A stretch of 64,000 nucleotides of DNA, from positions 1 to 64,000 of IMG/VR virus record IMGVR_UViG_3300032223_000428, one strand, 5' to 3'. The notes under the pieces were generated by a model. The model ran no database searches and was not told the DNA's origin. It saw only the letters and a list, made by a program, of their open reading frames with translations. Shown here piece by piece: positions 23,553 through 40,505 of the stretch. How positions within the stretch are numbered: the first letter of the stretch is position 1; the number at the start of each line of letters is the position of its first letter. The position numbers were made by a program, and so were the translations under genes. This stretch comes from a virus.

Positions 23553-24515
23553 TTACCAACTTAGAATATAAACGAACCCTGGACCACCATCACCTGGTCT
23601 TGCTAATGTTGTTACAGTTGTATTTGATCCACCAGCACCGCCACCACCACATCCTGGTGCTCCATTTCCACCTGCGCCAGCAAGACCACCTGCTGTTGTA
23701 GTGGAACCACCACCGCCAGCACCACCTGTATATTGGAACATCTTTAGCATAGTGCCACCAGAGCCAGCACCAGCAGGAGTAGATGTGACTGCTGCCGCAC
23801 CACCTGCAATTGCTGGAAAACTATCACCGAATCCTGCAAGTGTGATTGCGCCACCAGCTTGTGCTGATCCACTAGCTGTACCACCTCCACCTGCTCCACC
23901 CTGAACCATAAGACCAGTTGTTGGATATGTTTGTGCAATCCCTGCTGTAGTGTTAGTACCACCTGTTGAGCCCACTTGCCCTGCATAGAACTGATATGCG
24001 CCACGACCAGCCAGTGGCATGTTAGCAATAGTGGCGATAATAGCAGCAGTACCACCACTACCGCCAGTTGATGTAGTGGCTGCTGTTGTCACAGTTCCAG
24101 GCGAAGCAAAGAGAACTGTTAATTGAGCAGACAATGTATTCCATGGCTCAAGAGCAACATAGGTAATTGTTCCAGCAACACCAACAGCAGCAGAAACTAA
24201 TGTTGCTGGTTGTGAACCACCAAGTCCTGCTTGAATATAAAGAACATCAGGTAAAAACATGGCAGGAATCATCAGTGTACTTTGAGCACCAGAGCCACCT
24301 CCTGCACCACCACCAGAGTTTGTGGCTGATGTGTTTAGACCGCAACCACCAGATGCGCCACCACCAACAGCAATCATGTAAACAAATCTTGCTCCACGTG
24401 GTTTACGCCATGTTTTCCATTCACCAGAAGATGCACCAGCAGTCGTCTGCGCTTGACCAATAAATGTTTGAACATCTATGTTTGGATTAGTTAATATATG
24501 ATTAAAGTCTAACAT
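23553..24515 (-). CDS. Glycine-rich domain protein (putative fibre tip/adhesin), paralog B
   Basis: WKTWRKPRGARFVYMIAVGGGASGG, many GGxG runs, ends GDGGPGFVYILSW. Confidence 0.7.
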   Translation of the reverse strand: MLDFNHILTNPNIDVQTFIGQAQTTAGASSGEWKTWRKPRGARFVYMIAVGGGASGGCGLNTSATNSGGGAGGGSGAQSTLMIPAMFLPDVLYIQAGLGGSQPATLVSAAVGVAGTITYVALEPWNTLSAQLTVLFASPGTVTTAATTSTGGSGGTAAIIATIANMPLAGRGAYQFYAGQVGSTGGTNTTAGIAQTYPTTGLMVQGGAGGGGTASGSAQAGGAITLAGFGDSFPAIAGGAAAVTSTPAGAGSGGTMLKMFQYTGGAGGGGSTTTAGGLAGAGGNGAPGCGGGGAGGSNTTVTTLARPGDGGPGFVYILSW

Positions 24516-24519
24516 GTTA

Positions 24520-25473
24520 TTACCAACTTATTATGTAAACGAATCCGTCGCCACCGTCACCAGCACGACCTGTTGTTGTGTATCCTGGACCACTTGCGCC
24601 ACCGCCACATCCTGGTCCACCATTACCACCAGAACTACCTGTTGAGCCGTTACCAGTTGCAGCAAAAGCACCAGAACCACCACCAGATCCACCATAGAAC
24701 ATAAATGGTTTTACCATGTATCCATTAATACCGTTACCACCATTGGTACCAGATGCTGCCGCAGCACCACCAGCCAAGGTAGGAAAAGTTCCACCTAAAC
24801 CAAGACCAGTAATTGCACCGCCAGCACCACCTGCACCACCAGTGACATCTTTACCACCAGAACCTGCGCCACCTGTTACCATTAATCCTGTTGTTGGTAA
24901 TGTAATTGAACCACCAGCACCGTTCTGCGTTGCGCCAGCTGCACCACCATTCTGTCCTGCAAAATTCTGGCTCCAACCTCGACCAGCGAGTGGAAAGTTA
25001 CCAGACATTGCTGTTGCAGTTCCACCAGTTGTTGAAGCAGCACCATTGGCTAATAAGAAAAATAAATTAACAGAAGATGTAACTGTAGTCGTTGGTTCAA
25101 CTGCCACATAAGTTGCTGAACCTGCCACTGAAGCCAAAGCACTTGTTATCGCAGTACCCTGACGACCACCCAATCCTGTTTGAATGAACAATTCATTCGG
25201 AACAAACATCGCAGGTATTAAAAGCATACTTTGAGCACCAGAGCCACCTCCTGCTGCACCAGCGGCAGCAACAGATGTATTAGTAAATGTTCCACCAACA
25301 CCTGATGCGCCAGCACCAACAGCAATCATGTAAACCCAGTTTATACCACGTGGTTTAGTCCAAGTTCTCCAATCAAGTATGTTAGTTGAAGTTTGGCCAG
25401 TAGAATCCGAATCTCCAAAGAAACTCTGGATATCTACGCCAGGATTACTAACAACATGACTAAAATCTAACAT
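24520..25473 (-). CDS. Glycine-rich domain protein (putative fibre tip/adhesin), paralog A
   Basis: WRTWTKPRGINWVYMIAVGAGASG, ends GDGGDGFVYIISW; colinear with the neighbouring gene. Confidence 0.7.
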   Translation of the reverse strand: MLDFSHVVSNPGVDIQSFFGDSDSTGQTSTNILDWRTWTKPRGINWVYMIAVGAGASGVGGTFTNTSVAAAGAAGGGSGAQSMLLIPAMFVPNELFIQTGLGGRQGTAITSALASVAGSATYVAVEPTTTVTSSVNLFFLLANGAASTTGGTATAMSGNFPLAGRGWSQNFAGQNGGAAGATQNGAGGSITLPTTGLMVTGGAGSGGKDVTGGAGGAGGAITGLGLGGTFPTLAGGAAAASGTNGGNGINGYMVKPFMFYGGSGGGSGAFAATGNGSTGSSGGNGGPGCGGGASGPGYTTTGRAGDGGDGFVYIISW

Positions 25474-26492: not shown

Positions 26493-27074
26493 TTATACTG
26501 AAGCAGTGTAAGTTACGTTCAATGTATCGCCAGAAGCAACAGCTTTGTTACCACCAGTGAAAGAACCAGCTGAGTAAAGAATACCACCACCACCGTTGGA
26601 AGCAGTACCACGAGCCTGAGTTGAGCATAACAATGTACCAGCAATAGTAGCAGTACCAGTGATAGCGAATGCAGTTGCAGTAGTTGCTTTAGAACCAGCA
26701 GAAGCAGATGACCATGATGGAGTTGCTCTGTTAGTTGCGGAACCACCAGCAGTATAAGTAACAGAAGCTGCAATTTCTGACCAACCAGAGTGTGATGCTA
26801 AAGTATCACCAGCAGCGTATGTTGGAGTTGTACCACCATCAACTAGACCTAGATACCATGCTGCAGTATATGCAGAACCTGCTAGGTATTTATCTAGTAA
26901 GTCGTTTTTACCAACTGTTGTTACTAAGTTTGTATAAGTGTCTGTCCACTTTAAATTACCTTCTGAATCATAGCATGTTGCTGTATAAACACCAGATGCC
27001 TGAAGCATTTCGTCCATGCTGTTTCCAGTAGAAATACCACTAGAAACTACAGAGTTCGCATTTACTTGTTCCAT
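26493..27074 (-). CDS. Virion structural protein
   Basis: NLVTTVGKN.LLD, WYLGL, ends VASGDTLNVTYTASV; resembles 43148-43615. Confidence 0.7.
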   Translation of the reverse strand: MEQVNANSVVSSGISTGNSMDEMLQASGVYTATCYDSEGNLKWTDTYTNLVTTVGKNDLLDKYLAGSAYTAAWYLGLVDGGTTPTYAAGDTLASHSGWSEIAASVTYTAGGSATNRATPSWSSASAGSKATTATAFAITGTATIAGTLLCSTQARGTASNGGGGILYSAGSFTGGNKAVASGDTLNVTYTASV

Positions 27075-27092
27075 TTAAATCTCCTTGTTGAA

Positions 27093-27419
27093 TTAAGCGA
27101 ATTGTGCTCTTACCTGAAATTGAAGTGTATCATAAACTGTCTGTTTAGTTCCAGAGTAATTTAACTCAACTTCGCCTTCGTAATACCCTGGATCCACATT
27201 TAATGCAGTCCCAGAAAAATTAAAAATTACTATCCCATCAGATCCACCATTTGGCTTAGTGCATGCGATTGTAGAAAGAACGGTAGTAGAACCTTTCGCT
27301 CTAAAATACATCTGAACTGTTGCCGCAGATACATCTATTGGAAGACCAGTAGCATGTTTAAGGGTGAGTCTGATATAAGGCAAATTATCGCCCTGAACCA
27401 GTTTAATCCTTTCAGCCAT
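27093..27419 (-). CDS. Small Ig-like/BppU-N-like structural protein
   Basis: IKLVQGDNLP, PIDVSAATV, GYYEGEVELNYSG..QTVYD.L.F.VR. Confidence 0.65.
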   Translation of the reverse strand: MAERIKLVQGDNLPYIRLTLKHATGLPIDVSAATVQMYFRAKGSTTVLSTIACTKPNGGSDGIVIFNFSGTALNVDPGYYEGEVELNYSGTKQTVYDTLQFQVRAQFA

Positions 27420-27431
27420 CTGTACTCCTTT

Positions 27432-27454
27432 TATTTAGTTACTCTTTATTTATA
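27432..27454 (-). promoter_or_regulatory. Late promoter pair: TATAAATA (27447-27454) and CTAAATA (27432-27438)
   Basis: Exact T4 late consensus TATAAATA on the minus strand upstream of the fibre block. Confidence 0.75.
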
Positions 27455-27471
27455 AACGATTGTATTTGTAA

Positions 27472-28512
27472 TTAATCGTTAAGAATATTTTGATAGTTTT
27501 TAAGAAGAAATAACCACTGTTGATTCGTAAACTGTAACACTGATGTTCCTTTAGATTTGTTTTTGGAGTAGTGTTCCTCTCCGAACAAATCTCTAAGAGC
27601 CTCTCTCATCTGCCATCTATGAGTACTAGAATCACCACGAACTTTAATAAAAGGTTCATTAGTAGTCATGGACCAAAGTTGAAAATCATCTGTAGCGAAA
27701 AATGGAATTATTCTCTCTGCCTTTTCATTATGCATCATTGTTTTATGATCGTATAAACCAGTATACCAGTTTAAATTAAATAGACAATACCATCTTAAAT
27801 CATAGATCGTTTCGATTTTCCTATGAGATGCTTTAATCATAGGATCGAAAAACTCTAACAATTCTGGATTAATATGTTTCTCATAGGATTCATAAATCGT
27901 ATCTTTATTACCTAATTTGTAGTGAAACGCCATAGATCCATCTGTATCGAACATGTCATCAGTTGGACCAAATAAATGATTGGCACACATTCCACTAACG
28001 AAGATACAATCTATTGCATTAAAAGAATGCACATTAGGTGGAGGAACCTCTATTCTATATTTAAATTCATCTTTAAGTCTTCTATCAAATAAGTCACCAG
28101 ATTCTATTAAAGAATTAAATGTACCCCAGACTCTAACTTGATCTGGATCATTTGAATAATATTTTAGAAGAAATAAAATAAAAGTGCTATCAAGTCCTCC
28201 AGACCAAAGAACATGAATAACTTTGTTTTGATTTAATAACTCTTTGGCTCTTTCTTCACAAACTTCCATAAAAGTTTTATTAAATGGTTTTATGGCAGGA
28301 AGATGATTAGATTTATCAATGTTTAAATAATGCGGTAAAATACCAGATCTATCGTAAACCATATTACTAGAATTTAATCCTAGTTTATTATAAGTTTCCA
28401 ATAATGAATCATCAAAATCTTCAGATAAAAATGGTACCAATACATTACGATGTGTTTTTATTAAAGATGGAACCTCTTTATAATTATAATATAAAATGTC
28501 TTTTTTAAGCAT
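27472..28512 (-). CDS. Asparagine-synthetase-like N-type ATP pyrophosphatase (no glutaminase domain)
   Basis: PP-loop VLWSGGLDST; FVSGMCANHLFG (cf. lsGeGaDElfG); IIPFF..DDFQ.W; late K.K motif. Confidence 0.7.
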   Translation of the reverse strand: MLKKDILYYNYKEVPSLIKTHRNVLVPFLSEDFDDSLLETYNKLGLNSSNMVYDRSGILPHYLNIDKSNHLPAIKPFNKTFMEVCEERAKELLNQNKVIHVLWSGGLDSTFILFLLKYYSNDPDQVRVWGTFNSLIESGDLFDRRLKDEFKYRIEVPPPNVHSFNAIDCIFVSGMCANHLFGPTDDMFDTDGSMAFHYKLGNKDTIYESYEKHINPELLEFFDPMIKASHRKIETIYDLRWYCLFNLNWYTGLYDHKTMMHNEKAERIIPFFATDDFQLWSMTTNEPFIKVRGDSSTHRWQMREALRDLFGEEHYSKNKSKGTSVLQFTNQQWLFLLKNYQNILND

Positions 28513-28522
28513 AGAATCAAAC

Positions 28523-28546
28523 TAAAAGTGGGGTTAAAACCCCACT
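28523..28546 (-). terminator. Hairpin / probable intrinsic terminator after the DctP-like gene
   Basis: Minus strand AGTGGGGT-TTTA-ACCCCACT followed by TTTAGTTT. Confidence 0.55.
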
Positions 28547-28564
28547 ATAATATATTTTTTATAA

Positions 28565-29497
28565 TTAAGATTTAAGTTTATCAATAAGTCCTTCAGAAAA
28601 TACATCATTGTATTTTCCATAAACAGAAGATGTCGCCTGTTTAATTTTGTCTTTTTCTTCTTGTGTTAATTCAACTATTTCAATTCCCTCAGTTTGACAT
28701 GCAGTTTTAATAGCTTCAAGATTTGGCATAGAAACGAATGCAGCATTAGTAGAAGCAGTTAATAATGCTTCTTTAGTTTCATCATCTAATTCATCAAAGA
28801 ACATTTTATTAATTACAATGCAACCTAGCGATAGACTATGTTCAGTATCACTAACATATTTAAAAGATTTACTCTTTATTAAAGGTAGTAAATTAAAATA
28901 ATCTATTTCTGCAGAATCAATAATATTAAATTTTGCGGAAGAAACAATATTCTGATATTCGATATTATGGACTGGAGTAGATTCAATAGACTTAAACGTC
29001 TCATTAGAAACAGAGTTATTTCCTGTTTTAATTTTTTTATCTTTAAATGATGTTAATGTATCGCATTTAACTTTAGAAGCTATTACATTAGCTCCATTAG
29101 AAAACGTGAATTTTAATGCTTTGATACCAACTTTATTTTCTACACCAACCAATAGGTCAGATCCAGCTTCTCCATTTAATACAGTATAAGCATCTGAAAT
29201 GCTGTCGAAAATAAATGGTAATTGCAATGCATCAAGATCTTTATTGATATCTGCCAAGACTTCAGTTGGCAAAATACCCATAGTAATATCACCCTTACCA
29301 ATTAGGTGTAGGATATTACGTGGATTGCTGGATGAGTCTGGTGCATATTTCTCAACATATTCAGAAGAAGACATTACTTCAAAACTGAGTTTATCACTAC
29401 ACTTTTGGTCTACTTCTTTAACGAAAGAATCTGTAACATTAAAAGATACATCGAATGGATCCACAGAAACAACCCATTTTACTTTTTTAATTTCCAT
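28565..29497 (-). CDS. TRAP transporter solute-binding protein (DctP-like), no signal peptide
   Basis: L..GDITMG, LDALQLPFIFDS, L.GEAG..LL, D.K.KKIK, H.L....IVINK.FFDELD.ETK.AL..A, GIEIVEL..EE. Confidence 0.8.
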   Translation of the reverse strand: MEIKKVKWVVSVDPFDVSFNVTDSFVKEVDQKCSDKLSFEVMSSSEYVEKYAPDSSSNPRNILHLIGKGDITMGILPTEVLADINKDLDALQLPFIFDSISDAYTVLNGEAGSDLLVGVENKVGIKALKFTFSNGANVIASKVKCDTLTSFKDKKIKTGNNSVSNETFKSIESTPVHNIEYQNIVSSAKFNIIDSAEIDYFNLLPLIKSKSFKYVSDTEHSLSLGCIVINKMFFDELDDETKEALLTASTNAAFVSMPNLEAIKTACQTEGIEIVELTQEEKDKIKQATSSVYGKYNDVFSEGLIDKLKS

Positions 29498-29789
29498 TTT
29501 TTATTTCTCCTAATTTACTAGTATCGAACGACCAACTGCTTGTTTGTTGTTCTATTGTTCTTTGAGCGATCATTATCTTACTATTTATAAAGTATTTTAG
29601 TATGTCCATTGTAAACTGTTCTCTATTTTCAAAACATTCCAATGGAATCAAAGTATCTCTAGACTCATAATTTTTGTTATTAGAGTCGTAATAAAATACA
29701 TCTTTTATACAAAAATATTCAGTAGTGTGTTTTAATATTCTAGGATACTGTCTTATTTCAACCATGTATCCTTCAAAAAATGAACTCAT
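29487..29789 (-). CDS. Hypothetical protein
   Basis: 100-aa ORF overlapping both neighbours (ATGA coupling with the radical SAM gene). Confidence 0.6.
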   Translation of the reverse strand: MSSFFEGYMVEIRQYPRILKHTTEYFCIKDVFYYDSNNKNYESRDTLIPLECFENREQFTMDILKYFINSKIMIAQRTIEQQTSSWSFDTSKLGEIKNGN

Positions 29790-31177
29790 GCAACCACCGA
29801 AATTGGTATAATTTTTCTTGGTTTTCTAACATTAGATGGTTTACCATTAGTCCACCAGAATATATCTTTCCTATCTTCCCTTAGTGGACCTTCGATATAT
29901 TCTGGAATGCACCCAGTAATTTCTTCTATTGCTATACTAAACATAACGATATTATCACTAAATGCATTATCGCATGATGCATCCCATAGTGGTCCAGAAA
30001 GAAACATACATGCACCTTTACATATATGAATAACAGGACAGTTAGGGCACTCTTTTCTATCACTCCAATGAGTGGCAGTATTTAATTGAGAAGAATTTAA
30101 ATCAGAGATATGTCCTATCTTATGAGACATTCCTGCAGGATTATTAGAAACTGCGCTAACATTCTGACATGTCAAAACATTACCATTTAAGTCTAATGCA
30201 ATAGAATCTGATTTATCCATACCACACTTTTGTGGTAAAGATTCTATTCTAGAACCATTCTTAATAGAATTTAAAAATGTATTAAATTTACTGCCAATTA
30301 CAGAAAATCTGCTGGCACCACCACGTCTTAATTCATCTAGAGAAAGATTTCTAAATTTATTATCCTCTTCCCCATCCAATAATGAATTGGCAAGACCACC
30401 TTCATCATAAGCATCAACGAACGCACCTTCACCAATAGTTAAAAAATCACAGTATTCTTTTCCAATATTATCAGTAATAAATTTGATAAAAAATTCTTGG
30501 ATTTTTGTTCTGCTTATATTTTTAGAGTTAATCATAGAATTAAAACTAAAACGACGTTTAGGTGCCAATCTTTTATAAAGATCTAAAATGGCTTCTTTTG
30601 ATACTGGATCGTCAAAAGGATCTGGTCCACGAACTGGTTGTCCTGGACCATCATGAGAAACTGCAATACCAAACCCTAAAGATTCTAGCCAGTCATTCTT
30701 TTCTTTATCCAATAAACTACCATTAGTGATAATACCCATATTGCAATTTGGATATTTTTGTTTAATCGCTTCAGCTAAAGGTTTTAGTGTTTTCCAATAA
30801 ACAAATGGTTCACCACCCCAAAATTCAAAGGTTGTATTTTTTCCTAATAAATCATCTCCTCCCTCAAACCATGAGGACATATTTTCTACGAAAGGGAGAA
30901 CATCATCGGGATTGGTTTGATCGGCATGAGGAACGAAACGCTGGTTGCAATAATCACACTCGAAATTGCATGAAAGACCTAGCTGTATTTTTACAGTCTT
31001 TAGGTCTTTCTTCCCATGTTCTATTTTTGCTGGAGCCAGAACATCTGGTTGTGTCATTACATTATCATAAATTGGAGTTCCATCTTCCCATGTTAATGTA
31101 CTAACACTACTATCATAAATTATCACTTTATGTTTTTGTTCTTTAACATCCCATGATTTAATTTCAAATTTTGCCAT
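29786..31177 (-). CDS. Radical SAM enzyme with SPASM domain
   Basis: CNFECDYC (CxxxCxxC), FWGGEP, ITNGSLL, SHDGP; SPASM cysteines KCG...LTCQ...CPNCPVIHICKGAC...SCD. Confidence 0.95.
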   Translation of the reverse strand: MAKFEIKSWDVKEQKHKVIIYDSSVSTLTWEDGTPIYDNVMTQPDVLAPAKIEHGKKDLKTVKIQLGLSCNFECDYCNQRFVPHADQTNPDDVLPFVENMSSWFEGGDDLLGKNTTFEFWGGEPFVYWKTLKPLAEAIKQKYPNCNMGIITNGSLLDKEKNDWLESLGFGIAVSHDGPGQPVRGPDPFDDPVSKEAILDLYKRLAPKRRFSFNSMINSKNISRTKIQEFFIKFITDNIGKEYCDFLTIGEGAFVDAYDEGGLANSLLDGEEDNKFRNLSLDELRRGGASRFSVIGSKFNTFLNSIKNGSRIESLPQKCGMDKSDSIALDLNGNVLTCQNVSAVSNNPAGMSHKIGHISDLNSSQLNTATHWSDRKECPNCPVIHICKGACMFLSGPLWDASCDNAFSDNIVMFSIAIEEITGCIPEYIEGPLREDRKDIFWWTNGKPSNVRKPRKIIPISVVA

Positions 31178-31222
31178 ATAATTTCCAAAATTGGCACTCT
31201 ACCATAGAGCACCTCATAAATC

Positions 31223-31229
31223 TATTTAG
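31223..31229 (-). promoter_or_regulatory. Candidate late promoter (CTAAATA) upstream of the radical SAM gene
   Basis: tatttag overlapping the stop of the upstream ORF, 46 nt before the rSAM ATG; same motif as before gp18, gp25, gp2 and gp4. Confidence 0.4.
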
Positions 31230-32146
31230 ATCGTTTTAGTGAATGTGGTTTGAGCAAGCCAAAACTTAAATCCAATTTTAACTGAAACTGTATCTCCAGA
31301 ATCTAATCCTGTAGTTATAACTTTAAAAGAACCAGTTCCATTAGTTAATGGAATTTTTGTTTTTGGCAAAAATCCAGTATTTGTTTGTAAATATAAAAAA
31401 TCAATTCTTTCATCGGTTGTTACATTCACAGTAATAACATCACCAGAAATACTCGAGGTCGTGTTTATCTGAGCCATTAATTCTTCTGGAGGAGATATAA
31501 ATTCTTTTAATAAAGATAAACTAGTATCAACTTCTATAGTATGATCAGCGAAGCCAGTTCTATCTACAATATTATCACCACCTGGTCTAACAGTTTTTGG
31601 TGGATAATAATCTCTTGTGTCAGATATCGCCATTGGTTTTTGAATAACCAAAATAATGTCATCAGAAGTAGGATTATCACTTGTGACAAAGAAATTAAAT
31701 AAAGATTTACCACCAAAAATATTATTCACACCATTCCCATATGATAAAGAATATGCATTATAAATTTTATCAGATGGAATTGTGGTAGAATTAGTAGGAA
31801 GTAAAGATTCTATAAAATCCTGATCAATTCCCCATGCTGTTTGTGCTGGAGATTTTAGTAAAGGAGTGATATCAATTAAAAAATCATAAACTTTTAAATT
31901 TTCTGTAGTGTTAGTTAATACAATTTTAAATAAATTATCTTGTACGTTCTGTATTTCCCATTTAAAATGTATTGGAGTAGTCTCCCATAAAGGGTGATCT
32001 CTTAAGTCATCTTGTATTTCTTGAGAAAACTCTGATGCGTTATCCCAATCTAAATTTGGATATAATCCATGTTTCCAATTTAAACTAATAGTATTATTAA
32101 CAAAAGAATATTTTCTACTATCTGTTAGTCTTAGTGCGTATTTCAT
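31226..32146 (-). CDS. Hypothetical protein with C-terminal Ig-like beta domain (fibre/rSAM-associated)
   Basis: 306 aa; C-terminal LYLQTNTGFLPKTKIPLTNGTGSFKVITTGLDSGDTVSVKIGFKFW; sandwiched between fibre and rSAM genes. Confidence 0.65.
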   Translation of the reverse strand: MKYALRLTDSRKYSFVNNTISLNWKHGLYPNLDWDNASEFSQEIQDDLRDHPLWETTPIHFKWEIQNVQDNLFKIVLTNTTENLKVYDFLIDITPLLKSPAQTAWGIDQDFIESLLPTNSTTIPSDKIYNAYSLSYGNGVNNIFGGKSLFNFFVTSDNPTSDDIILVIQKPMAISDTRDYYPPKTVRPGGDNIVDRTGFADHTIEVDTSLSLLKEFISPPEELMAQINTTSSISGDVITVNVTTDERIDFLYLQTNTGFLPKTKIPLTNGTGSFKVITTGLDSGDTVSVKIGFKFWLAQTTFTKTI

Positions 32147-32155
32147 GCATATTCC

Positions 32156-33484
32156 TTAACAATTACAATTGCAGTTAATACAATTTAAATAATGGTGATG
32201 TGGGTCAAGACCTGTGCCAGTATCTAAATGTTCTCTTCCATAACAATTATATGAGTGAAAGAAATGAGAATATTGGCCATGATTACCAGATCCAGCACCA
32301 CGCCCCCAGACACTAACGAAGCTGTTTACCTTTGTATTGGCTGCTACTGCCATATCATTTGTGAACTGTGATAGATGTCCTGGTCTACCTTGAATACCAC
32401 CCCATGGTGCATGTGAAGAATGGTGAGTAAAGTCACTACTATGTGCCGCATGAGAATAAGAACTATTGAAGGCATGACTGACATTAGAAACAATAACAGC
32501 ACCAGTGTTACCCTGAACAGATGATACTGGAACAGAAACGATTACGTTACCAGTCGCACCATTAACAGATTGAACTGGCACGTTAACAATAACAGCACCA
32601 GTGTTACCCTGAACAGATGTAACTGGAACAGAAACGATTACGTTACCAGTATTACCCTGAACAGTTAATACGTTTGCATTAATAGTTGGGTTACCACCAG
32701 TACCATCACCATTCTGAACAGTAATACCTGATCCTGCAGCTATAGATCTTACCGTTGCAGTCGCTGCGCCAGTTCTAATGTAAATACCGTTAGACGAAAC
32801 ACTAGAAAGACCAGCAAGGTTATTAGCATATGCTTGGACATCTGTACCAATTGTTAAACCTAGACCAGTACGAGCAGTTGCTTGATCGGCAGACGCTTCC
32901 AATCCACGCATAAATGCAGAAGAAGTATATGTACCAGCTGTTCCTACCCCAGTAAAATATGGAACAGCACCAGCAGCAGAAGATACACTGGCCAGTGCAG
33001 CAAGTTCAGCATCATAAGCCTGAACGTCTGTGCCAATTGCCAAACCCAATGCAGTTCTTGCAGCAGGGGCATTATTAGATCCAGTACCACCAGAGCCAAT
33101 AGGTAGAGCAGTTGTAAGTGTTGTAATAGAACCACTAGTAATTGCTGCTACGCCAGTAAATGTACCAGAAAAATTCGTAGCTGTAATGGTGTTACCAGCG
33201 AAGTTACCAGAACTATCACGAACTACAACAGAACTTTTATTGACACCTGCAGGTAATGCAGAAGATGTATCTAATCCATCTAGAAAGTCAGCGTCTAGAA
33301 GAGAACCTGTACCATCAACGGTAATAAGTTTAGCCAGTACATCTGCAGCAGTATAACTAGCAGCAGTAAGACCTGTTTGAAGAGCTGTATTGAGGGCTGA
33401 GAAGTTATTATCAACTTCAGTATTAGTAAGAGGACTGCCCTTAGTACCTCTTAACGTAATGGTTGCAGCGGATATATTTGCCAT
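32156..33484 (-). CDS. Tail fibre protein with His-rich, Asn-Cys-repeat C-terminus
   Basis: ITLRGTKGSPLTNTEVDNNF N-terminus, LDADFLDG, GGTG...AARTALGL, ~5x VxSVxGxTG repeats, ends PHHHYLNCINCNCNC. Confidence 0.85.
   Translation of the reverse strand: MANISAATITLRGTKGSPLTNTEVDNNFSALNTALQTGLTAASYTAADVLAKLITVDGTGSLLDADFLDGLDTSSALPAGVNKSSVVVRDSSGNFAGNTITATNFSGTFTGVAAITSGSITTLTTALPIGSGGTGSNNAPAARTALGLAIGTDVQAYDAELAALASVSSAAGAVPYFTGVGTAGTYTSSAFMRGLEASADQATARTGLGLTIGTDVQAYANNLAGLSSVSSNGIYIRTGAATATVRSIAAGSGITVQNGDGTGGNPTINANVLTVQGNTGNVIVSVPVTSVQGNTGAVIVNVPVQSVNGATGNVIVSVPVSSVQGNTGAVIVSNVSHAFNSSYSHAAHSSDFTHHSSHAPWGGIQGRPGHLSQFTNDMAVAANTKVNSFVSVWGRGAGSGNHGQYSHFFHSYNCYGREHLDTGTGLDPHHHYLNCINCNCNC
32490..32670. 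repeat. 45-bp coding repeats (VPVxSVQGNTGxVIV), ~4-5 copies
   Basis: Recurrent ttaccctgaacag and ctggaacagaaacgattacgttaccag. Confidence 0.85.
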
Positions 33485-33501
33485 TTAAGGATTCCTTTAA
33501 A

Positions 33502-33738
33502 TCAATCTTTTTTATTCATAAATTCGATAATTAATGATTTTATCTCTTTTAGATCATTCTTTATATTATTTATGTCTTCTTCATGCTGAGAAATTTGACG
33601 ATTACGATCTTCAGCGATACGTCTTCTTTCCATATATTCTTGATATTCCGTTTGACTAGTATTGATGATAGCCCCAGTCGAAACATCTCGAACTAGGCTA
33701 TCATGACCAACAACTTTTAAGTAGTCCATTATGGGCAA
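33502..33738 (-). CDS. Conserved small T4-like phage protein
   Basis: YLKVVGHDSLVRDVSTGAIIN...coiled coil INNIKNDLKEIKSL; follows the large structural gene. Confidence 0.7.
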   Translation of the reverse strand: MPIMDYLKVVGHDSLVRDVSTGAIINTSQTEYQEYMERRRIAEDRNRQISQHEEDINNIKNDLKEIKSLIIEFMNKKD

Positions 33739-36700
33739 GCAATAAGTCTAAAATCTTTAATAATTGGGACTGCAGCACTGTTTGCAGACTGCATTACTAG
33801 TTTAACCACAACAGTATCAAAAGGAATCATATTATTTAATGTATAGTCAACATCATAAAATGTGTTGTTTCCATTATCTACTTTGGTTAAACCAGTTCCA
33901 TCAGCTGTAGCTAAAGTATATTTAGTTGTGTCTAGTTGGGAAGCATCACCCAAACATGTTTTATAATATACCTTAACGTCTGCCTCACTTGGGCAATTTG
34001 CACTCAATTTAATTCTAGTGTATGTAGAAGAATTTGCAAATTTTACAGGTGTGGTTACATATTTACTAATACTATTGCTACCAACTGGAGCGATCTCGTC
34101 AAAGAATAGTTCTTTCAGAGAGATAGTTGTACCAGAAGCTGCAGCTTCCGAAGCCATAACTGCCTCTGTAGAAGCAGTAGATGATACGTTAACTGTTGCT
34201 GTTGTTCCATTATCAGAGAAACCAGTAACTATCCATGTTCCATTATTAGAAGTAGTTGTAGCACTGGCAATAACAATGTATCTACCAATACCAAGTCCTG
34301 ACAATACGCCTCTGGCTGTTGAGTTTGTAGAAGTAATAGAAGATGGATTACCAACATATCCAAGAAGAGCACTACCATGATAAGCAGTACCAAATGTATG
34401 AGATGGAGCACTAGTACTACCAGTTCCACCGATCAAACAGATGTATAATTTATTACCATAATAATACTGAGTTCCTGCAGTCAAAGATTGAGAACCAGTT
34501 AAAGTTAACAATGTTCCAGTAATGGCAAAGTTAAATGCACCAGAAGAACCTATGTGAACTTGTTTCAAATCTAATGCAGCCACGTTAGTGTTTGCTTCTG
34601 TTGGCCAGTTTAATTTATTTGAAATTAACTGAACGCTAGAACGTGCAGTATCTATAACTGGAGAGACTGAATCATTTGTAGTGGAAATCTGTGCAGTTAA
34701 TATTAAAGATGGAGAACGAGTTGAAGGATCTAATTCTGCAGCAATAAGTTTTGTCTGTTTAAAGATATTATCTTGTTTCATCAAAACTGATGTAGAAGTA
34801 TCTGTAGAATATGCAGTTTGATTACCATCCATTGATGTACCAGTAGTTGTTGTAACAGAATAACTTACTTTATTATCAGAGAAAGCCTGAACTTCCATTG
34901 TTGGGTTTAAAATATCATAAGTGATATTATGTGTGGCTCTCAATAAATTACCACCAGCATATCCAGTACTAGTTGCATTAGTAGCAGTTGTTATTGTATA
35001 ACAATGCATATCTACGTTGCTAACAGTTTTACTTCCACTAGACAAAGTTGGTGCAGAGCATATTTCTGTGTATGGAATTCCATTAAATGTTGTTAATGAA
35101 ATATATGTTAATACAGCAGTACCATTAGTTGCTTGGCCAACAGTATGAGTTGGCGCAGAAGATCCAGTGGTTCCAGCAGTTGTTACCTGATAAACTTTAC
35201 CACTTGATATTACATAAGAGTTTAATGTAACTGCAGTAGATGCTGCCCATGTTGTCGATCCATATGTAATCCATGGCACTGTAAGTTTAACAGATGATGC
35301 TGTTACAGGACTGAAACCATGGTTAGGGTGCCAGACTCTTACTGTGTTGCTTCCACTAACAGTCTGTAGAGGATCGCCATAAAGTTGATCATATGGTAAT
35401 ACGTTATTAACAAATGATACGTTGGCGATCGAATTTGTAGTAAACTTAGCACGATATAAAGTAAATTTAATATCTTGATTTTGATCTGGAGTCCATGTTG
35501 AAGCATTTTGAGACTTAAACATTACACCAGCATATGGTTGCTCAGAAATAGTTCTACTAGTTCCAGGAATCTCGTCACCCATATTAGAGATCCAAACTTT
35601 ATAATTGTTTGAATCTGATTGGATAACGAAACAATATTCTTGACCATCCATCACATAAACAGGTGCATCAAATTTAAAATTAGTTGCAACATTATAGTCA
35701 GCGTAAGAATTTCCATCCCATATTGTTACTGGATTGTATCCAGAAGCTGTAGGATCTGCACCAGCAACTGGGGCATTAACCGAATCTGATTTCAATGATA
35801 CTGTACTAAATGGAAGAACATATTTTCCTGGAGTACCATTAACTATTTCACGAATAGAAACAGTGACAGGAATATTTGCATCTTTAGTTGCAAAGAAAAT
35901 ATCAATAGATGTTAAGAATGCTCCACCTTTATTTTGAACCAAGAATGATTGTGCAAGTGGATCATACCAACCAGTATCAGAAATAACTGTTGTAACCCCA
36001 CCACCATAACTTCCATCTTTAGATAAAGTTTGGTACATATTAGGATTATTTGCATCATAATTAATCTGTTCTTGAACATATTCTGGAGATCTAATAGATT
36101 GAACTACAGATTGAACAGTCTGTAGTGTTCCAGTAGCATCATACATGCCCATAGCACGTGATGTATAGTTTCCGAATGCTGTAGAAGAATCAACTAGTTT
36201 AAGTTGAGACTTGCCAGTTCTGAAACGAATAGATTCAGTATTTGGAATATAGTATAAGAAATTAAGTTCACCAGCCTGATTAGTGGTTAAAGTAGTATTA
36301 ACTGTTGTTGATATTACAGTACCAGTAGCACTATTATTAAGAGTACCAGTGATAGTTTCGTTTGCACTGAATGTTCCAATAATATTGACTAAATCTAAGG
36401 CATATGAAGTTGTACCATCAGAATTTAATATTGTATATTTTCCAACAACTACAGCAGAAGCTGTTTGTGCCTGATTATTGATGACATCACCTTTTGTTAA
36501 ACAAACCTGTGTATCACCAGCTATTCTTCGCTTAGCATCTGTACCTGCACCACCAACATTTGTTGTAGTATCAAATAATTTATGTGTAACCAGTTTGGCA
36601 GAAGAAGTTGAGCCAGTTGGCGTATAAATCATCGTTGTTGTTGGAGTGCAATAGTCAGAAACTGCAATCTCATTAAAATATGCATAGAATCTTGTATTTG

Positions 36701-39700
36701 GTTTTAACCCTTTGGCTTGAACCAATAAATTTCTAGATCTTACATAAGGAATCATTGCTGTAGAAAGAACCTTATCGCCAACAGTGACTCTATCTGTTTT
36801 AGGAATAACAGATGTTTTAGTTCCTGTTCTAGATTTAAATCCAGTTTGTGACCATGTAGTTACACCTGTAGTAGATGTTGTTAGAGATCTAAGAGCCATT
36901 CCACCATTGGCTGACCAATTTCCACCTAGATTATTTAATTGATCTCTACTTGTACTATTTTGATTATATGATTGAATCGTTGATGGTGCAGTAGAAGATT
37001 GAACGCCATTCCAATGGTCATTCCATTCTCCCCAAATAGGGAATCCATTATTTGAATCAACCCAATTTTTAACAGCGGTATAATTATCAATATTCTCAAC
37101 CAATTCTGGCGCACGAGCAGTATCAAACCAATCATCAGATGGTGGATTAATTTGAACAGTTCCTAAGAATGTAAATATTGCAAATGGATTAACATTCTCA
37201 AGTCTAGATGCATATCCTTGTTTAATAAATTCTTGTGATGTATATGGTAAAGTTATAACATCACCAGTTAATTGATATCCTGAAGAAGTTCTAGCAGCAG
37301 TGTTAGAATTTTGTTCAATTAAATCAACATTATGGGATGTGTGCGCTGGACGTAATAAGTTATTCTTCATATCAATAGAACAAACATAGTCTTTTGACGT
37401 AGTATTTGCTAATGAAGAACCACCGAAATTGTCAACGACAAATCCGTTTTTCATTCTATCAAGACCAGTACTATCTGTAATTTTAAGTGTACTAGTTTCT
37501 GCTTCTAATAAAGATAAAGAAGTATAGTATTCTAAGTTATCAATACGTTTTTCAAGTTTACCAATATCACGCATTGTGTAGCGTTTGTTATCGACTTTAA
37601 TGACAGCTACGCTAGATGTAGTAGTACCAAATGTATATGGTTCTAATGTTAGATTATAAAGAACCATCGCATTGGCTGGTGCTGTTGGCTCTCCTGGAGA
37701 AACAGATGAAACACCAAGAACATCAAAGAATGTTCCATTTTTATCAATAGAAATTTTATCTTTTCTACCAAGATAATAGCTAAAGTCTAATGTTGTATAT
37801 TCACCTCGTTTTGGTGGATTAGACCATGAAGAGCCAGTACCAGCAAATACTCTAGTAGAAGCATTAACAGATTTATTGGCAACTCTTGGACGGAAGTCCA
37901 AAGAGTCTCTCAATAGAGGAGGAATTTGTTTATAATCTATCGAATAAGAATCTCTATCAAAATAATCTCCAGCACCATGTTCAAAATATTCATATTGAAT
38001 TTGAATTGGATTTGATGGAGCTGTATATGAAGGTAATAGATTTAATCTACCCAAATCATAATGAGTAGTTCTTTGTCCATTATCAAAACTGTAACGCTCA
38101 GAGATATCTTGTGTATAATAAGAAGGGTCTTTAGAAGCTGTACCACTAAAAGACAATGATGGAGCCATCTTAATGCTTATAATTCTAAACACATCAGCTT
38201 TATCTAATAATAGAGTTGTAGCCTGTGCAGTATCAGCAGTAATAAAGGTATCATGATCTTTTGTACCATCACTAGAGATTGGTGATACAGTTGTGGTTAA
38301 TGATTTAGTCTTTTCGAATCCTGATCCACTTTTCTTAACTGCAGCAATAACTGAATATGTTCCAGCTGATGGGACAGTTATGGTTACGTTACTTCCAGAA
38401 ACAGAAATTTTATCATATGTAATATTCTGTATACTTCCATCAGAATCTTTAGTTACAATATAATTGTCCTGATCTGCAGCTGGAGCAAATGTTCCAGCGA
38501 CACTTAAACCAAGAGATGTAGTTGCTGTTGTGACACTGGTAAATTTAACGTATGAATAGTAGTTTAAGTTATTAACACCACCACTACCAGAAGTTCTTAC
38601 ATTCTTAACAGAAGAATATGGAAGTGGGAAAATTAATGATGTATTTGTTGCTTCATTAATAGCAGTACTTGCAATTTGCATTGCACCACCACTAACTGTA
38701 ATTGCTGAATCAACAGTTATTGAAGTTTGGCTGTTAATTGCTGTAACTTTACGATAACTAGAAGCAGAGCCATCAGTGATTAAAAGATAATCATTAAGTT
38801 TAACATCAGTTTGGAAAGATGTTCCAGTACCAGTTAAAGTGGCAGAAGCAGAAGCAGTGACAGATCCAGTTATTTTAGTTAATATAGGTTGGATATCTGC
38901 TGTGAAGATAAGAGTGCCACCTGGATTATAGTATATTGATTTTACGTTTCTGCTAAAATCATAACCAGAATACATCTGAATATCAAATAAACCCAATTTG
39001 TAAATCGATGTGCTACCATATGGAAGGACACTTTGCCATTCCATAAAACGAACACGTGCGGTTCCAACTGCAGTTCCTAGATTGGATGCTGTTGTAGTTC
39101 CTCTATATGATGATCCAGATAATCCATTATACAATGTAACAATACCAGCACTGTCTACTGGTGGTGGGTTATACACGTTTGTTACATTAATGTAATTTCC
39201 GATTGTTGGTGCCAATACTGAACTTGTTGCTTGTTCATAATCTCTGGCTTTTGGCACTGTTAAGTATGATGTTCCAAGTTTTTCAATCTCAACACCTCTA
39301 ACATAAGCCTTACCAGCTTCTAAACCAATAGCCAATTTTGTTTCATCACCATCTAAATTAATACCACGATTGTATAGTGGATTTATATCATAGAACCATG
39401 TGATAGTACCATCTGATGCATTACCAGATGTATGAGTTGGAGCTGTACTACCAGAAGTTGCGCTAGTTCTAGCTGTATAAGTTAAACCAGCATTTGTTAC
39501 AACATCACCAATTATATAAGCAGTATTCTGTGTCCACTGCCCACGATTATTATTTCTATGTTCACGAACATCAATGTTAAAATCACGAACAGTGTAATCT
39601 CCAGATTCATCATAAGTACGACGTGCAAGTTCGACATCAATATCTGAATAGATCTGATTTAATGGATTATCAGGAACAATTGTTGCAACTTGTCCATTAG

Positions 39701-40505
39701 TTACACGGATAAGTTCAATAAAATTATAATCACTAGTATCTGATAATGAACGCTTTGCTAGAGTCAAATCAATATAGTAACGATGCGCTCCAGGCGCAGC
39801 AAAGTTGTAACTATTTTGAGCATTATCTAATAAAGATTCATCATCCTCTGATGTGATAATTTTCTCAGATACTTCCAAACCAATACGATAAGATGGAGTA
39901 CCAGTATATTTGTCTAATACTAAATTCTGTTTTTCAACTAATACGAAATTCTTATTGACATAATAAACACCACGTTCTACAGTGGTCATGGAACCTTTAC
40001 CAGTAGAACTAGTAGAGTATGCCTGAACATAAAGAGAGCTAGAATCAGTTGTATGAATAACTTCGTTATCAGCGAATGTTTTTGTTACTTTATCTGTTCC
40101 AGAAGCAGTATAACGAATATAAAGTGTGGCAGGATCAGTATTCTCAGCTGGCAGTGCTACGATAACTTGAGCAGTAACACCAGTAGTTCCACCAACAATA
40201 GTTTTTCCATTTAACGAATTAATAAATGTAGCAACAGCAACACCATTATAAGAATTCTGTAATTTAACATAATCTATACCTTTGGTGTTTGAGTAGGCAG
40301 TTTCAACAGAAGCCTGTCCAGGAACAACCATAGCACCTTGTTTAAATGCATTATCACCATGACGAGATATTTGATTTTGCAGAATAGTCTGCAATTGAGT
40401 CAATTCACGTGCCTGAACTGCAAAAGATGGACGAAATAGTATACGATAAAACTTTTTATCTTCACTATAATCGTCATTGTATGGTTCGGTATTAAAATCG
40501 ATCAT
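33729..40505 (-). CDS. Large virion structural protein (DUF4815/VrlC-like)
   Basis: PYNDDYSEDKKFYRILFRPSFAVQARELTQLQTILQNQI, APGAHR, LARRTYDESGDY, KRYTMRDIGKLEKRIDNLEYYTSLSLLE, DPLAQSF, FKSQNASTW. Confidence 0.9.
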   Translation of the reverse strand: MIDFNTEPYNDDYSEDKKFYRILFRPSFAVQARELTQLQTILQNQISRHGDNAFKQGAMVVPGQASVETAYSNTKGIDYVKLQNSYNGVAVATFINSLNGKTIVGGTTGVTAQVIVALPAENTDPATLYIRYTASGTDKVTKTFADNEVIHTTDSSSLYVQAYSTSSTGKGSMTTVERGVYYVNKNFVLVEKQNLVLDKYTGTPSYRIGLEVSEKIITSEDDESLLDNAQNSYNFAAPGAHRYYIDLTLAKRSLSDTSDYNFIELIRVTNGQVATIVPDNPLNQIYSDIDVELARRTYDESGDYTVRDFNIDVREHRNNNRGQWTQNTAYIIGDVVTNAGLTYTARTSATSGSTAPTHTSGNASDGTITWFYDINPLYNRGINLDGDETKLAIGLEAGKAYVRGVEIEKLGTSYLTVPKARDYEQATSSVLAPTIGNYINVTNVYNPPPVDSAGIVTLYNGLSGSSYRGTTTASNLGTAVGTARVRFMEWQSVLPYGSTSIYKLGLFDIQMYSGYDFSRNVKSIYYNPGGTLIFTADIQPILTKITGSVTASASATLTGTGTSFQTDVKLNDYLLITDGSASSYRKVTAINSQTSITVDSAITVSGGAMQIASTAINEATNTSLIFPLPYSSVKNVRTSGSGGVNNLNYYSYVKFTSVTTATTSLGLSVAGTFAPAADQDNYIVTKDSDGSIQNITYDKISVSGSNVTITVPSAGTYSVIAAVKKSGSGFEKTKSLTTTVSPISSDGTKDHDTFITADTAQATTLLLDKADVFRIISIKMAPSLSFSGTASKDPSYYTQDISERYSFDNGQRTTHYDLGRLNLLPSYTAPSNPIQIQYEYFEHGAGDYFDRDSYSIDYKQIPPLLRDSLDFRPRVANKSVNASTRVFAGTGSSWSNPPKRGEYTTLDFSYYLGRKDKISIDKNGTFFDVLGVSSVSPGEPTAPANAMVLYNLTLEPYTFGTTTSSVAVIKVDNKRYTMRDIGKLEKRIDNLEYYTSLSLLEAETSTLKITDSTGLDRMKNGFVVDNFGGSSLANTTSKDYVCSIDMKNNLLRPAHTSHNVDLIEQNSNTAARTSSGYQLTGDVITLPYTSQEFIKQGYASRLENVNPFAIFTFLGTVQINPPSDDWFDTARAPELVENIDNYTAVKNWVDSNNGFPIWGEWNDHWNGVQSSTAPSTIQSYNQNSTSRDQLNNLGGNWSANGGMALRSLTTSTTGVTTWSQTGFKSRTGTKTSVIPKTDRVTVGDKVLSTAMIPYVRSRNLLVQAKGLKPNTRFYAYFNEIAVSDYCTPTTTMIYTPTGSTSSAKLVTHKLFDTTTNVGGAGTDAKRRIAGDTQVCLTKGDVINNQAQTASAVVVGKYTILNSDGTTSYALDLVNIIGTFSANETITGTLNNSATGTVISTTVNTTLTTNQAGELNFLYYIPNTESIRFRTGKSQLKLVDSSTAFGNYTSRAMGMYDATGTLQTVQSVVQSIRSPEYVQEQINYDANNPNMYQTLSKDGSYGGGVTTVISDTGWYDPLAQSFLVQNKGGAFLTSIDIFFATKDANIPVTVSIREIVNGTPGKYVLPFSTVSLKSDSVNAPVAGADPTASGYNPVTIWDGNSYADYNVATNFKFDAPVYVMDGQEYCFVIQSDSNNYKVWISNMGDEIPGTSRTISEQPYAGVMFKSQNASTWTPDQNQDIKFTLYRAKFTTNSIANVSFVNNVLPYDQLYGDPLQTVSGSNTVRVWHPNHGFSPVTASSVKLTVPWITYGSTTWAASTAVTLNSYVISSGKVYQVTTAGTTGSSAPTHTVGQATNGTAVLTYISLTTFNGIPYTEICSAPTLSSGSKTVSNVDMHCYTITTATNATSTGYAGGNLLRATHNITYDILNPTMEVQAFSDNKVSYSVTTTTGTSMDGNQTAYSTDTSTSVLMKQDNIFKQTKLIAAELDPSTRSPSLILTAQISTTNDSVSPVIDTARSSVQLISNKLNWPTEANTNVAALDLKQVHIGSSGAFNFAITGTLLTLTGSQSLTAGTQYYYGNKLYICLIGGTGSTSAPSHTFGTAYHGSALLGYVGNPSSITSTNSTARGVLSGLGIGRYIVIASATTTSNNGTWIVTGFSDNGTTATVNVSSTASTEAVMASEAAASGTTISLKELFFDEIAPVGSNSISKYVTTPVKFANSSTYTRIKLSANCPSEADVKVYYKTCLGDASQLDTTKYTLATADGTGLTKVDNGNNTFYDVDYTLNNMIPFDTVVVKLVMQSANSAAVPIIKDFRLIACP

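Follow-up and report, generated by a model that had tools for sequence, protein, structure and literature searches.

Why would a tailed phage carry a radical S-adenosylmethionine (SAM) enzyme in the midst of its virion genes, and on which substrate would this enzyme act? The question is raised by a cassette of six genes at positions 27472-33484 of the DNA analysed in this study, a stretch of 64,000 nt (hereafter the window) that covers positions 1 to 64,000 of IMG/VR record IMGVR_UViG_3300032223_000428. The source is a 76.6-kb IMG/VR viral contig of about 47% completeness, and it looks like the genome of a T4-like or pelagimyophage-like phage. In the order of transcription, the cassette encodes a tail fibre, a 306-aa protein, a radical SAM enzyme with a SPASM domain (rSAM), a 100-aa protein, a DctP-like protein and a PP-loop protein. 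A previous examination of the letters of the window and their translations (the sequence-only reading) had taken these six genes for one pathway that modifies the end of the fibre. In this study, the rSAM gene was found to be coupled, across unrelated phage types, to proteins ending in an (Asn-Cys)n ladder, and the reading favoured here is that this ladder is probably the substrate of the adjacent rSAM, which would give rise to a thioether-crosslinked fibre tip. The genes, their domains and their genetic coupling were established directly; from these we infer the action of the enzyme on the tail, the product and the roles of the partner proteins.

Linkage of the radical SAM gene to Asn-Cys tails

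The first gene of the cassette (32156-33484, minus strand) encodes a 442-aa protein that matched two tail fibre families of PHROG (phrog_24210, 4.9e-13; phrog_7389, 1.9e-06). The C-terminus of this fibre reads HHHYLNCINCNCNC, and its last residues, NCINCNCNC (32159-32185, minus strand, followed by the stop codon TAA at 32156-32158), constitute the (Asn-Cys)n tail that is the proposed substrate site. The first 335 aa contain neither His nor Cys, whereas the last 107 aa (32159-32479, minus strand) form a tip with 14 His and 5 Cys, and each of these Cys is preceded by Asn (5/5). The fibre was the only real open reading frame (ORF) in the 64-kb window with a run of three or more xC repeats, (xC)>=3; all other matches to this pattern in the window lay in frames of at most 86 aa, and none was at the end of an ORF. 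Alignment of 10 fibre homologues showed a conserved N-terminal shaft and a variable C-terminal region of about 100 aa, within which N437, C438 and C440 were invariant. The sequence-only reading had described the tip as His-rich as well. However, the His richness was clade-specific and was not conserved with the enzyme (the homologues at loci L016, L017 and L020 keep the Cys ladder without the His stretch), and because many relatives are without it, the stretch was rejected as part of the conserved system. Two other explanations of the motif were set aside, namely an N-glycosylation sequon, since NCNC is not N-x-S/T/C in register, and an intein-like Asn-Cys cleavage, for which there was no supporting feature.

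A DNA-level search of positions 27000-34000 against known phages returned only a 190-bp match in the fibre. At the protein level, the closest relatives of the rSAM in named phages (45-48% identity) were those of the myovirus Ralstonia phage RSP15 and of the siphoviruses Achromobacter phages JWF and 2-1, and in RSP15 and JWF the rSAM gene is located two or three genes past a tail-fibre gene. The RSP15 fibre ends in NTNCQCGN. The JWF fibre contains NCNCDCNCNCSC, directly followed by a Hint domain (PF05203, 3e-12), and self-cleavage by this domain would leave the ladder as the new C-terminus. A scan of IMG/VR with the rSAM yielded 23 loci at 56-80% identity, and an (NC)n-ended protein was present in all of those with enough upstream DNA. 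Furthermore, a scan of cellular genomes (one genome per prokaryotic species) revealed 80 further loci, mostly in freshwater Burkholderiales and including cultured strains of Limnohabitans, Polynucleobacter, Paraburkholderia and Burkholderia paludis. Among the cellular loci with at least 2.5 kb of upstream DNA, 44 of 60 satisfied a strict regular expression for a C-terminal (xC)>=3 run, and 16 of the other 17 cellular loci carried either a Hint fusion or an NC run that ends differently, for example in CCGCC. In a census with hidden Markov models, the tail was found in 58 of the 62 rSAM-seeded loci with adequate flanks, in addition to two NCRNCNC variants; many of the loci labelled as having none in these censuses were incomplete.

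The composition of the tails was uniform, in loci that had been selected via the enzyme and not via the motif. The Cys residues were invariant, and the x positions between them were occupied by Asn (75%), Asp (12%) or Ala (7%), with every other residue at or below 2% (n=299). In 56 of 65 distinct tail proteins, the alternating Cys were at the C-terminus or at most four residues from it.

The reverse test gave a corresponding result. IMG/VR was scanned for DNA encoding NCNCNC followed by TAA, and of the 109 stretches obtained 80 were examined. Of these, 65 form the ends of open frames that are 80 aa or longer, and the other 15 are short chance frames. The rSAM was present in the DNA examined for 42 of the 65 real viral ORFs and for 25 of the 28 that had at least 5 kb of downstream DNA. 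It was invariably on the same strand, 14-3623 nt downstream; the 15 chance frames were all without it. The sequence-only reading had proposed a search for rSAM homologues beside (NC)n-ended fibres, and this search had a strongly positive outcome whether it began from the enzyme or from the tail, in phage types that are not related to one another. Its idea that the substrate tail is fused to a virion protein is well founded through this two-way linkage.

The radical SAM enzyme and the proposed reaction

The product of the third gene (29786-31177, minus strand) is a radical SAM enzyme of 463 aa whose SPASM domain is complete. The protein matched PF04055 (9e-07, 29.6 bits against a cut-off of 29.5), the SPASM domain model TIGR04085 (1.2e-08, 35.2 bits against a cut-off of 27) and phrog_1802 (2e-62), and it belongs to a family of at least 2903 homologue clusters at E<=1e-20. 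The CX3CX2C motif (C70, C74 and C77) was invariant in nine divergent homologues, and the same nine also share every Cys of a complete SPASM motif, which comprises C318-X13-G-X4-C337, C377-X2-C380-X5-C386-X3-C390 and C402. Exactly seven SPASM Cys were invariant, and no eighth invariant Cys was found anywhere in the enzyme. When the rSAM was aligned to anSME, the counterpart of one Cys of auxiliary cluster I (Aux I) of anSME was absent. Both auxiliary clusters of anSME are fully ligated and AlbA has seven Cys, and in CteB the Aux I site is open and is bound by the substrate Cys (PMC6231123). Judged by its Cys pattern, the phage rSAM looks like an enzyme with an open Aux I coordination site, as in thioether formers, although a ligand other than Cys may occupy this site. 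Profile comparisons with the PDB gave matches to TvgB (8vpo, 1e-16), CteB (1.4e-09) and anSME (7e-08), and among NCBIfam models PapB was the best match, with QhpD matched at 2.7e-11.

Taken with the linkage, these features make it very probable that the rSAM acts on the tail, and slightly more likely than not that the product is a thioether. In the infected cell, the enzyme would bind the thiolate of a tail Cys at the open iron site of auxiliary cluster I, would abstract a hydrogen from a nearby residue (Asn in most cases, Asp or Ala in some) and would make a carbon-sulfur (thioether) bond, and the reaction would be repeated along the ladder. The predicted product is a redox-insensitive, protease-resistant and crosslinked fibre end, whose crosslinks would be overlapping rings of the NxxC type inside a single chain or might connect the three chains with one another.

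Substrate diversity and accessory genes

At least seven otherwise unrelated types of substrate were found, and the tail alone is their common feature. These types include fibres of 340-440 aa, triplets of 81-167-aa proteins, siphovirus fibres of high GC, Hint fusions and proteins of 125-175 aa that carry 14-19 NC pairs. Non-homologous substrates with only the tail in common are the pattern expected if the enzyme recognises the tail itself.

The triplets are exemplified by locus L025 (2799-3608), where three tandem proteins of 86-87 aa each end in NCNCNC, and triplets were also present at L078 (7111-8282), L084, L102 and L105. A fibre with an S74 chaperone domain immediately precedes them. The paralogues share the N-terminus M-x-T-x-L-x-N-G-x-x-T-F-G-D-G-T, vary in the middle and end in NCNC[N/A/V]CNC, and that there are always three of them points to a heterotrimeric tip. 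In the Hint fusions, represented by L002 (6670-8121, JWF gp028), L175 (near nt 4820) and L190 (near nt 5753, Burkholderia paludis MSh1), the ladder is followed by C-F-P-x-G/D-T, and self-cleavage would pass through a thioester at the C-terminal carbonyl of the ladder.

The accessory genes varied among the loci and included 2-oxoglutarate (2OG) oxygenases, a Trp-halogenase-like flavoenzyme and the PP-loop gene, a variation that resembles that of a tailoring cluster. The tryptophan-halogenase-like flavoenzyme (PF04820, 5.2e-27) was observed at L080 (1173-2357, minus strand) and also at L043, past the rSAM and a partner with an immunoglobulin-like (Ig) domain; both are loci with NC-rich proteins of 125-175 aa. 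A 2OG-FeII_Oxy_5 oxygenase gene (6.1e-23) is present on the same contig as the window, outside the window itself and about 42 kb from the cassette (G000:C1:75280-75579), and members of this family were found inside the rSAM module of other phages.

The 306-aa partner protein

The gene between the fibre and the rSAM (31226-32146, minus strand) encodes the 306-aa protein, a member of what is here called the 'GFK' family, which consists of an N-terminal region of about 220 aa and a C-terminal Ig domain of the intimin/invasin type (Big_1). No family match was found in Pfam, NCBIfam or PHROG. In an AlphaFold2 (AF2) model with a predicted local distance difference test score (pLDDT) of 79, residues 225-306 were superimposed on intimin 1f02_I by VIA-align with a Z of 9.6 and a root-mean-square deviation of 2.2 A over 79 residues. 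The N-terminal region had no clear structural match in the Foldseek pdb and VIA-wide searches, in which only the C-terminal Ig domain was matched, and the Atlas feature matches of the protein (0.76) were under the useful range. Alignment of 13 homologues revealed that G258, G272, G284, K290 and G292 are invariant and that the Ig domain ends in a conserved V-K-x-G-F-K-x-W strand.

The sequence-only reading had proposed to look for homologues of the 306-aa protein beside such fibres as well, and the protein is a frequent partner, with homologues in 49 of the 62 rSAM loci; the JWF-type loci have a different protein of 240 aa instead. Because the rSAM has no recognisable full RiPP recognition element (RRE; RiPP, a peptide made by the ribosome and modified after its translation), we infer that the 306-aa protein is an adaptor or chaperone that presents the tail, or else a component of the tip. 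A complex prediction of this protein with the last 110 aa of the fibre scored 0.00 with the partner poorly folded, and speaks neither for nor against binding. Within residues 289-294, in the terminal strand of the Ig domain, K290 is invariant and K294 nearly invariant. A Lys beside an Asn-rich partner tail recalls the Lys-Asn isopeptide chemistry of pilins and HK97.

Layout of the cassette and its three distal genes

The sequence-only reading had described six co-oriented and tightly packed genes within an otherwise structural region, and had supposed, without computing it, that the non-fibre genes were AT-richer. The coordinates, the strand (minus for all six) and the intergenic gaps (-11 to +52 nt) agreed with this description. 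The GC content, now computed, was 0.27-0.34 in the five non-fibre genes against 0.42 in the fibre and 0.39-0.42 in the next genes downstream. The flanks of the cassette look like structural genes: on the upstream side, a phrog_473 virion protein and a protein of 2258 aa with DUF4815 (VrlC-type) are encoded, and on the downstream side, Gly-rich proteins and a phrog_8123 protein. The DUF4815 protein (33729-40505) had a weak CBM_5_12 match, and two adjacent Gly-rich paralogues of 317 and 320 aa (23553-25473) had a weak Gly_rich_2 match; all three are presumably virion proteins.

The last three genes form a trio. The 100-aa protein (29487-29789, minus strand) had no match in Pfam, NCBIfam or PHROG, and it co-occurred with the DctP and PP-loop genes both beside the rSAM and away from it. 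The second member (28565-29497, minus strand) is a cytoplasmic 310-aa homologue of the DctP-type (TRAP family 7) solute-binding proteins, with a PF03480 match of 4.8e-27 (95.5 bits against a cut-off of 23.4) and a PDB profile match to 4p47 (1.2e-29). No signal peptide was present, and the N-termini of all seven homologues begin at the mature domain; no DctM gene, and no membrane partner of the DctP-like protein, was found on the contig, which is 47% complete. The window copy was only 34-37% identical to its homologues, whereas the neighbouring PP-loop proteins were 52-61% identical, and it reads K-I-K-T where six homologues have V/I-R-T/I-S.

The third member (27472-28512, minus strand) is a stand-alone PP-loop ATP pyrophosphatase of 346 aa with an SGGLDS motif, of which S104, G105, G106, D108 and S109 were invariant in nine homologues. 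Its assignment to the AsnB type is weak. The Asn_synthase model PF00733 gave 13.2 bits against a cut-off of 21, the PDB profile search matched the PP-loop motif only (nitrile synthetase, E 0.05), and the AF2 model (pLDDT 59) had weak best Foldseek matches to carbapenam synthetase (1q15, 3.8e-04), ASNS and beta-lactam synthetase. In the Atlas, the protein falls into a large phage family labelled Asn synthase, with template modelling (TM) scores of 0.54-0.61 to stand-alone AsnB-like proteins. It is probably an AsnB-type synthetase domain without the glutaminase domain. A lasso-like or isopeptide-forming role, as put forward in the sequence-only reading, received no direct support; neither a lasso leader peptidase (B protein) nor a precursor with an N-terminal amine and an Asp-Glu ring pair was evident in the family scans of the cassette, which did not include a dedicated search for them.

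The trio was also observed in other settings. At L229 (5768-8732) and L247 (6724-10335), both on T4-like contigs, it lies between nrdAB-glutaredoxin and IscU/IscA genes together with small membrane proteins, which is an iron-sulfur assembly neighbourhood and not a fibre one. At L256 (6989-13143), the gene order is PP-loop protein, 98-aa protein, rSAM, 231-aa protein and a 918-aa fibre with Gp34_trimer and S74 domains.

Discussion

Several observations weigh against the reading that the ladder is the substrate of the adjacent rSAM and becomes thioether-crosslinked. With respect to the enzyme, the nearest solved sequence relative, TvgB, is a cyclopropylglycine synthase and not a thioether synthase, and no equivalog cut-off of NCBIfam was reached (PapB, 50 bits of the required 340; QhpD, 43 of 453; SCIFF maturase, 30 of 425). 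No full RRE was recognisable; the N-terminal extension of about 60 residues is too short for a standard RRE, and the alignments to RRE-bearing maturases start well inside those maturases, with start points given as 35-50 residues in and as residues 75-106. With respect to the linkage, the L256-type rSAM is a true family member (35% identity, E 2e-79), yet the 7 kb in each direction from it contained no (xC)n ORF. Moreover, three families of NCNCNC-ended proteins of about 185-200 aa, represented by L074 (2672-3226), L079 (11273-11881) and L068 (4896-5450), are encoded in structural modules with no rSAM of the family nearby, and the L074 protein is encoded on an 89.7-kb phage contig (CheckV 100% complete) throughout which the rSAM family is absent. 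With respect to the trio, the Arg that binds carboxylates in TRAP proteins is Lys in the DctP copy of the window and Arg in six homologues, and approximately 10 of 35 PP-loop-seeded loci carry the trio without an rSAM within 7 kb on either side.

The alternative that survives best concerns this last point. It holds that the fibre, the 306-aa protein and the rSAM constitute a tip-maturation unit, and that the trio is an unrelated auxiliary metabolic cassette located in the same hypervariable, AT-rich host-recognition region; we consider it a serious possibility that falls slightly short of an even chance. The trio was found in only 11-12 of the 62 rSAM loci and was absent from about 50, the rSAM-less trios lie amid genes for nrdAB, glutaredoxin, IscU (NifU_N, 2.6e-54) and IscA (4.4e-16), and the PP-loop proteins by themselves make up a large phage family. 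Furthermore, rSAM cassettes come and go in the corresponding cluster of pelagimyophages (PMC7029224). On the other hand, an rSAM was present in 25 of the 35 PP-loop-seeded loci, and in at least five separate rSAM lineages a PP-loop gene is encoded no more than 7 kb from the rSAM, with several arrangements of the genes. A tree of 93 rSAM sequences placed PP-loop neighbours in the large T4-like clade of the window and in at least four further lineages (L256, L260/L261, L196 and L239); in some loci the PP-loop gene lies between the 306-aa gene and the rSAM gene (L020/L242), in others directly before the rSAM gene (L256, L260/L261, L035 and L196). No rSAM was found on five trio-only contigs, which are 6-11% complete and hence uninformative, since an rSAM may be present elsewhere on these genomes.

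The proposal of the sequence-only reading that the six genes act as one pathway is therefore only partly supported, because the trio is absent from most rSAM loci and also occurs without the rSAM. Of its overall interpretation, the linkage between the rSAM and the (NC)n-ended fibre has stood, while the single obligatory six-gene pathway, the lasso or isopeptide role and the His stretch have found weak support or none. The trio is regarded here as a clade-specific and separable cassette, and the odds that it acts on the same tail are about even. If it does so, carboxylate binding and adenylation, for example of the C-terminal carboxylate of the final Cys, would most plausibly be involved, and there is a suggestive parallel to the Hint fusions, where the C-terminal carbonyl would be activated as a thioester.

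An elaboration that joins these elements is distinctly doubtful. According to this elaboration, an inter-chain thioether 'knot' would staple the three fibre chains together at the receptor-binding end and perhaps anchor the Ig-domain partner, and in the clade of the window the DctP-like and AsnB-like proteins would bind and adenylate the carboxylate of the final Cys for amidation or ligation. Such a knot, if true, would be the first case of a virion crosslinked covalently by an enzyme, and amidation or ligation of the carboxylate would lead to the same chemical end that the JWF-type fibres reach by the thioester of the Hint domain.

A second alternative is that the Cys ladder is an intrinsic structural motif of the trimeric fibre end, where it would form a disulfide knot or a metal-thiolate site like that of metallothionein. 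The rSAM would then have a different target (a small molecule, another residue or the 306-aa protein) or would do no more than aid the loading of metal or clusters. The NCNCNC-ended proteins in structural modules without the rSAM, including the one on the complete contig, suggest that the ladder may have an intrinsic role, and metal binding or disulfide formation thereby stays alive as a rival or as an ancestral function. In addition, the tails of prophages include the endings CCGC and CDCCC, and the tip in the window has its 14 His. Cys-x-Cys spacing and endings such as CCGC and CDCCC resemble metal-binding motifs. In contrast, the linkage of enzyme and tail is near-universal, holds in both directions and extends across unrelated substrates, the enzyme is of the RiPP-type SPASM class and its pattern of seven Cys suits the binding of a thiolate from the substrate, and the His stretch is not conserved. 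An exclusively intrinsic role of the ladder is thus considered unlikely.

It is less likely still that the rSAM is anSME-like and oxidises tail Cys to formylglycine or another oxidised form, so that the fibre end would carry reactive aldehydes. Among solved structures, anSME alone was aligned over the full length (residues 70-390 against 15-330), the rSAM resembles anSME in that no full RRE is recognisable, and the JWF homologue was once annotated as anSME. However, the TIGR03942 score was 39 bits against a cut-off of 349, one of the eight Cys of the auxiliary clusters is missing, and the tails contain no C/S-x-P/A-x-R sulfatase motif. The sequence-only reading had seen no sulfatase in the window, and this holds for the whole 76.6-kb contig, on which none was found. 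Finally, it is very improbable that the fibre or small protein serves as a giant leader from which the modified tail is cleaved to yield a free RiPP-like peptide that does not stay on the virion, as the resemblance of the tandem triplets to leader-core precursor arrays and the variation of tailoring genes as in a biosynthetic gene cluster could suggest, since the motif lies at the extreme C-terminus of bona fide fibre homologues, no protease or exporter was conserved in the module in the 62-locus census, Hint self-cleavage would keep the ladder on the fibre, and the small proteins follow S74-domain fibres and have fibre-like N-termini.

The favoured reading, in which the rSAM crosslinks the Asn-Cys ladder, would make the phage system work like the maturation of ranthipeptides and sactipeptides or like the QhpD/QhpC and CrpC/CrpA pairs, and by score it is a member of no curated family. 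With CteB/CteA (SCIFF) and PapB/PapA (freyrasin), it shares a SPASM rSAM beside a Cys-rich substrate and the seven SPASM Cys, with the open site as in CteB. Unlike the enzymes of these ranthipeptide systems, the phage rSAM is far under the family cut-offs and without a recognisable full RRE, and its substrate would be the end of a 442-aa virion fibre with (Asn-Cys)n and not a leader-core peptide. The Cys-Asn beta-thioether synthase NxxcB uses Asn as the native acceptor and tolerates Ala, Gln and Asp, while the Cys is irreplaceable (PMC9389541). The NCNC ladder contains overlapping NxxC, and its N>D>A variation resembles the tolerance of NxxcB in the streptococcal RaS-RiPP system NxxcB/NxxcA; this resemblance is one of substrates only, and NxxcA is a short quorum-regulated peptide.

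Precedents for protein-sized thioether substrates are QhpD/QhpC and, since September 2026, CrpC/CrpA, and such cases have been called limited by the authors of the latter work (PMC13692751). These pairs likewise have a SPASM rSAM and a protein-sized, Cys-rich substrate in the same cluster, sometimes with further tailoring enzymes; however, both use an RRE and a leader, and what they modify is an enzyme subunit in one case and an archaeal protein in the other, not a virion protein. The overall architecture without a recognisable full RRE, aligned over the full length, is shared with anSME, from which the phage system differs by one auxiliary-cluster Cys fewer, no sulfatase and no CxPxR motif. 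The S74 fibre chaperone and the isopeptide chainmail of the HK97 capsid have a similar aim, in that a virion protein is matured and made stable after its translation, by processing or by a covalent step; those reactions are autocatalytic, whereas the phage module encodes a dedicated iron-sulfur radical enzyme, and S74 and Hint domains occur within the same modules as the rSAM. The distinguishing features of the phage system are the virion-fibre-end substrate, the (Asn-Cys)n motif, the apparent absence of a full RRE and the usual Ig-domain partner.

In a search of the accessible literature, no paper was found that pairs an rSAM with a phage fibre tail. A study of pelagimyophages outlined the variation of rSAM cassettes in the host-recognition cluster and left it uninterpreted (PMC7029224), a cyanophage paper in which both an rSAM and a fibre appear treats its rSAM as an 'antibiotic' gene (PMC12801897), and a paper on lake phages related to JWF does not mention these genes. 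The system is directly testable because cultured carriers exist, namely phages JWF, 2-1 and RSP15 and isolates of Limnohabitans, Polynucleobacter and Burkholderia paludis.

If the favoured reading is true, tailed phages apply RiPP-type radical chemistry to their own virion, and a dedicated iron-sulfur enzyme hardens or shapes the part of the particle that touches the host. An enzymatic post-translational step would then be added to fibre assembly, which is otherwise seen as a matter of folding, chaperones and autoproteolysis, and the very short list of protein-sized thioether substrates (QhpC and CrpA) would be extended. Members of the family are common among T4-like phages that abound in freshwater and in the sea, and among prophages of Burkholderiales. 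Since the family is located in the host-recognition cluster, it may be relevant to host range, to the stability of particles in water that is oxidising or rich in proteases, and to the engineering of robust fibres.

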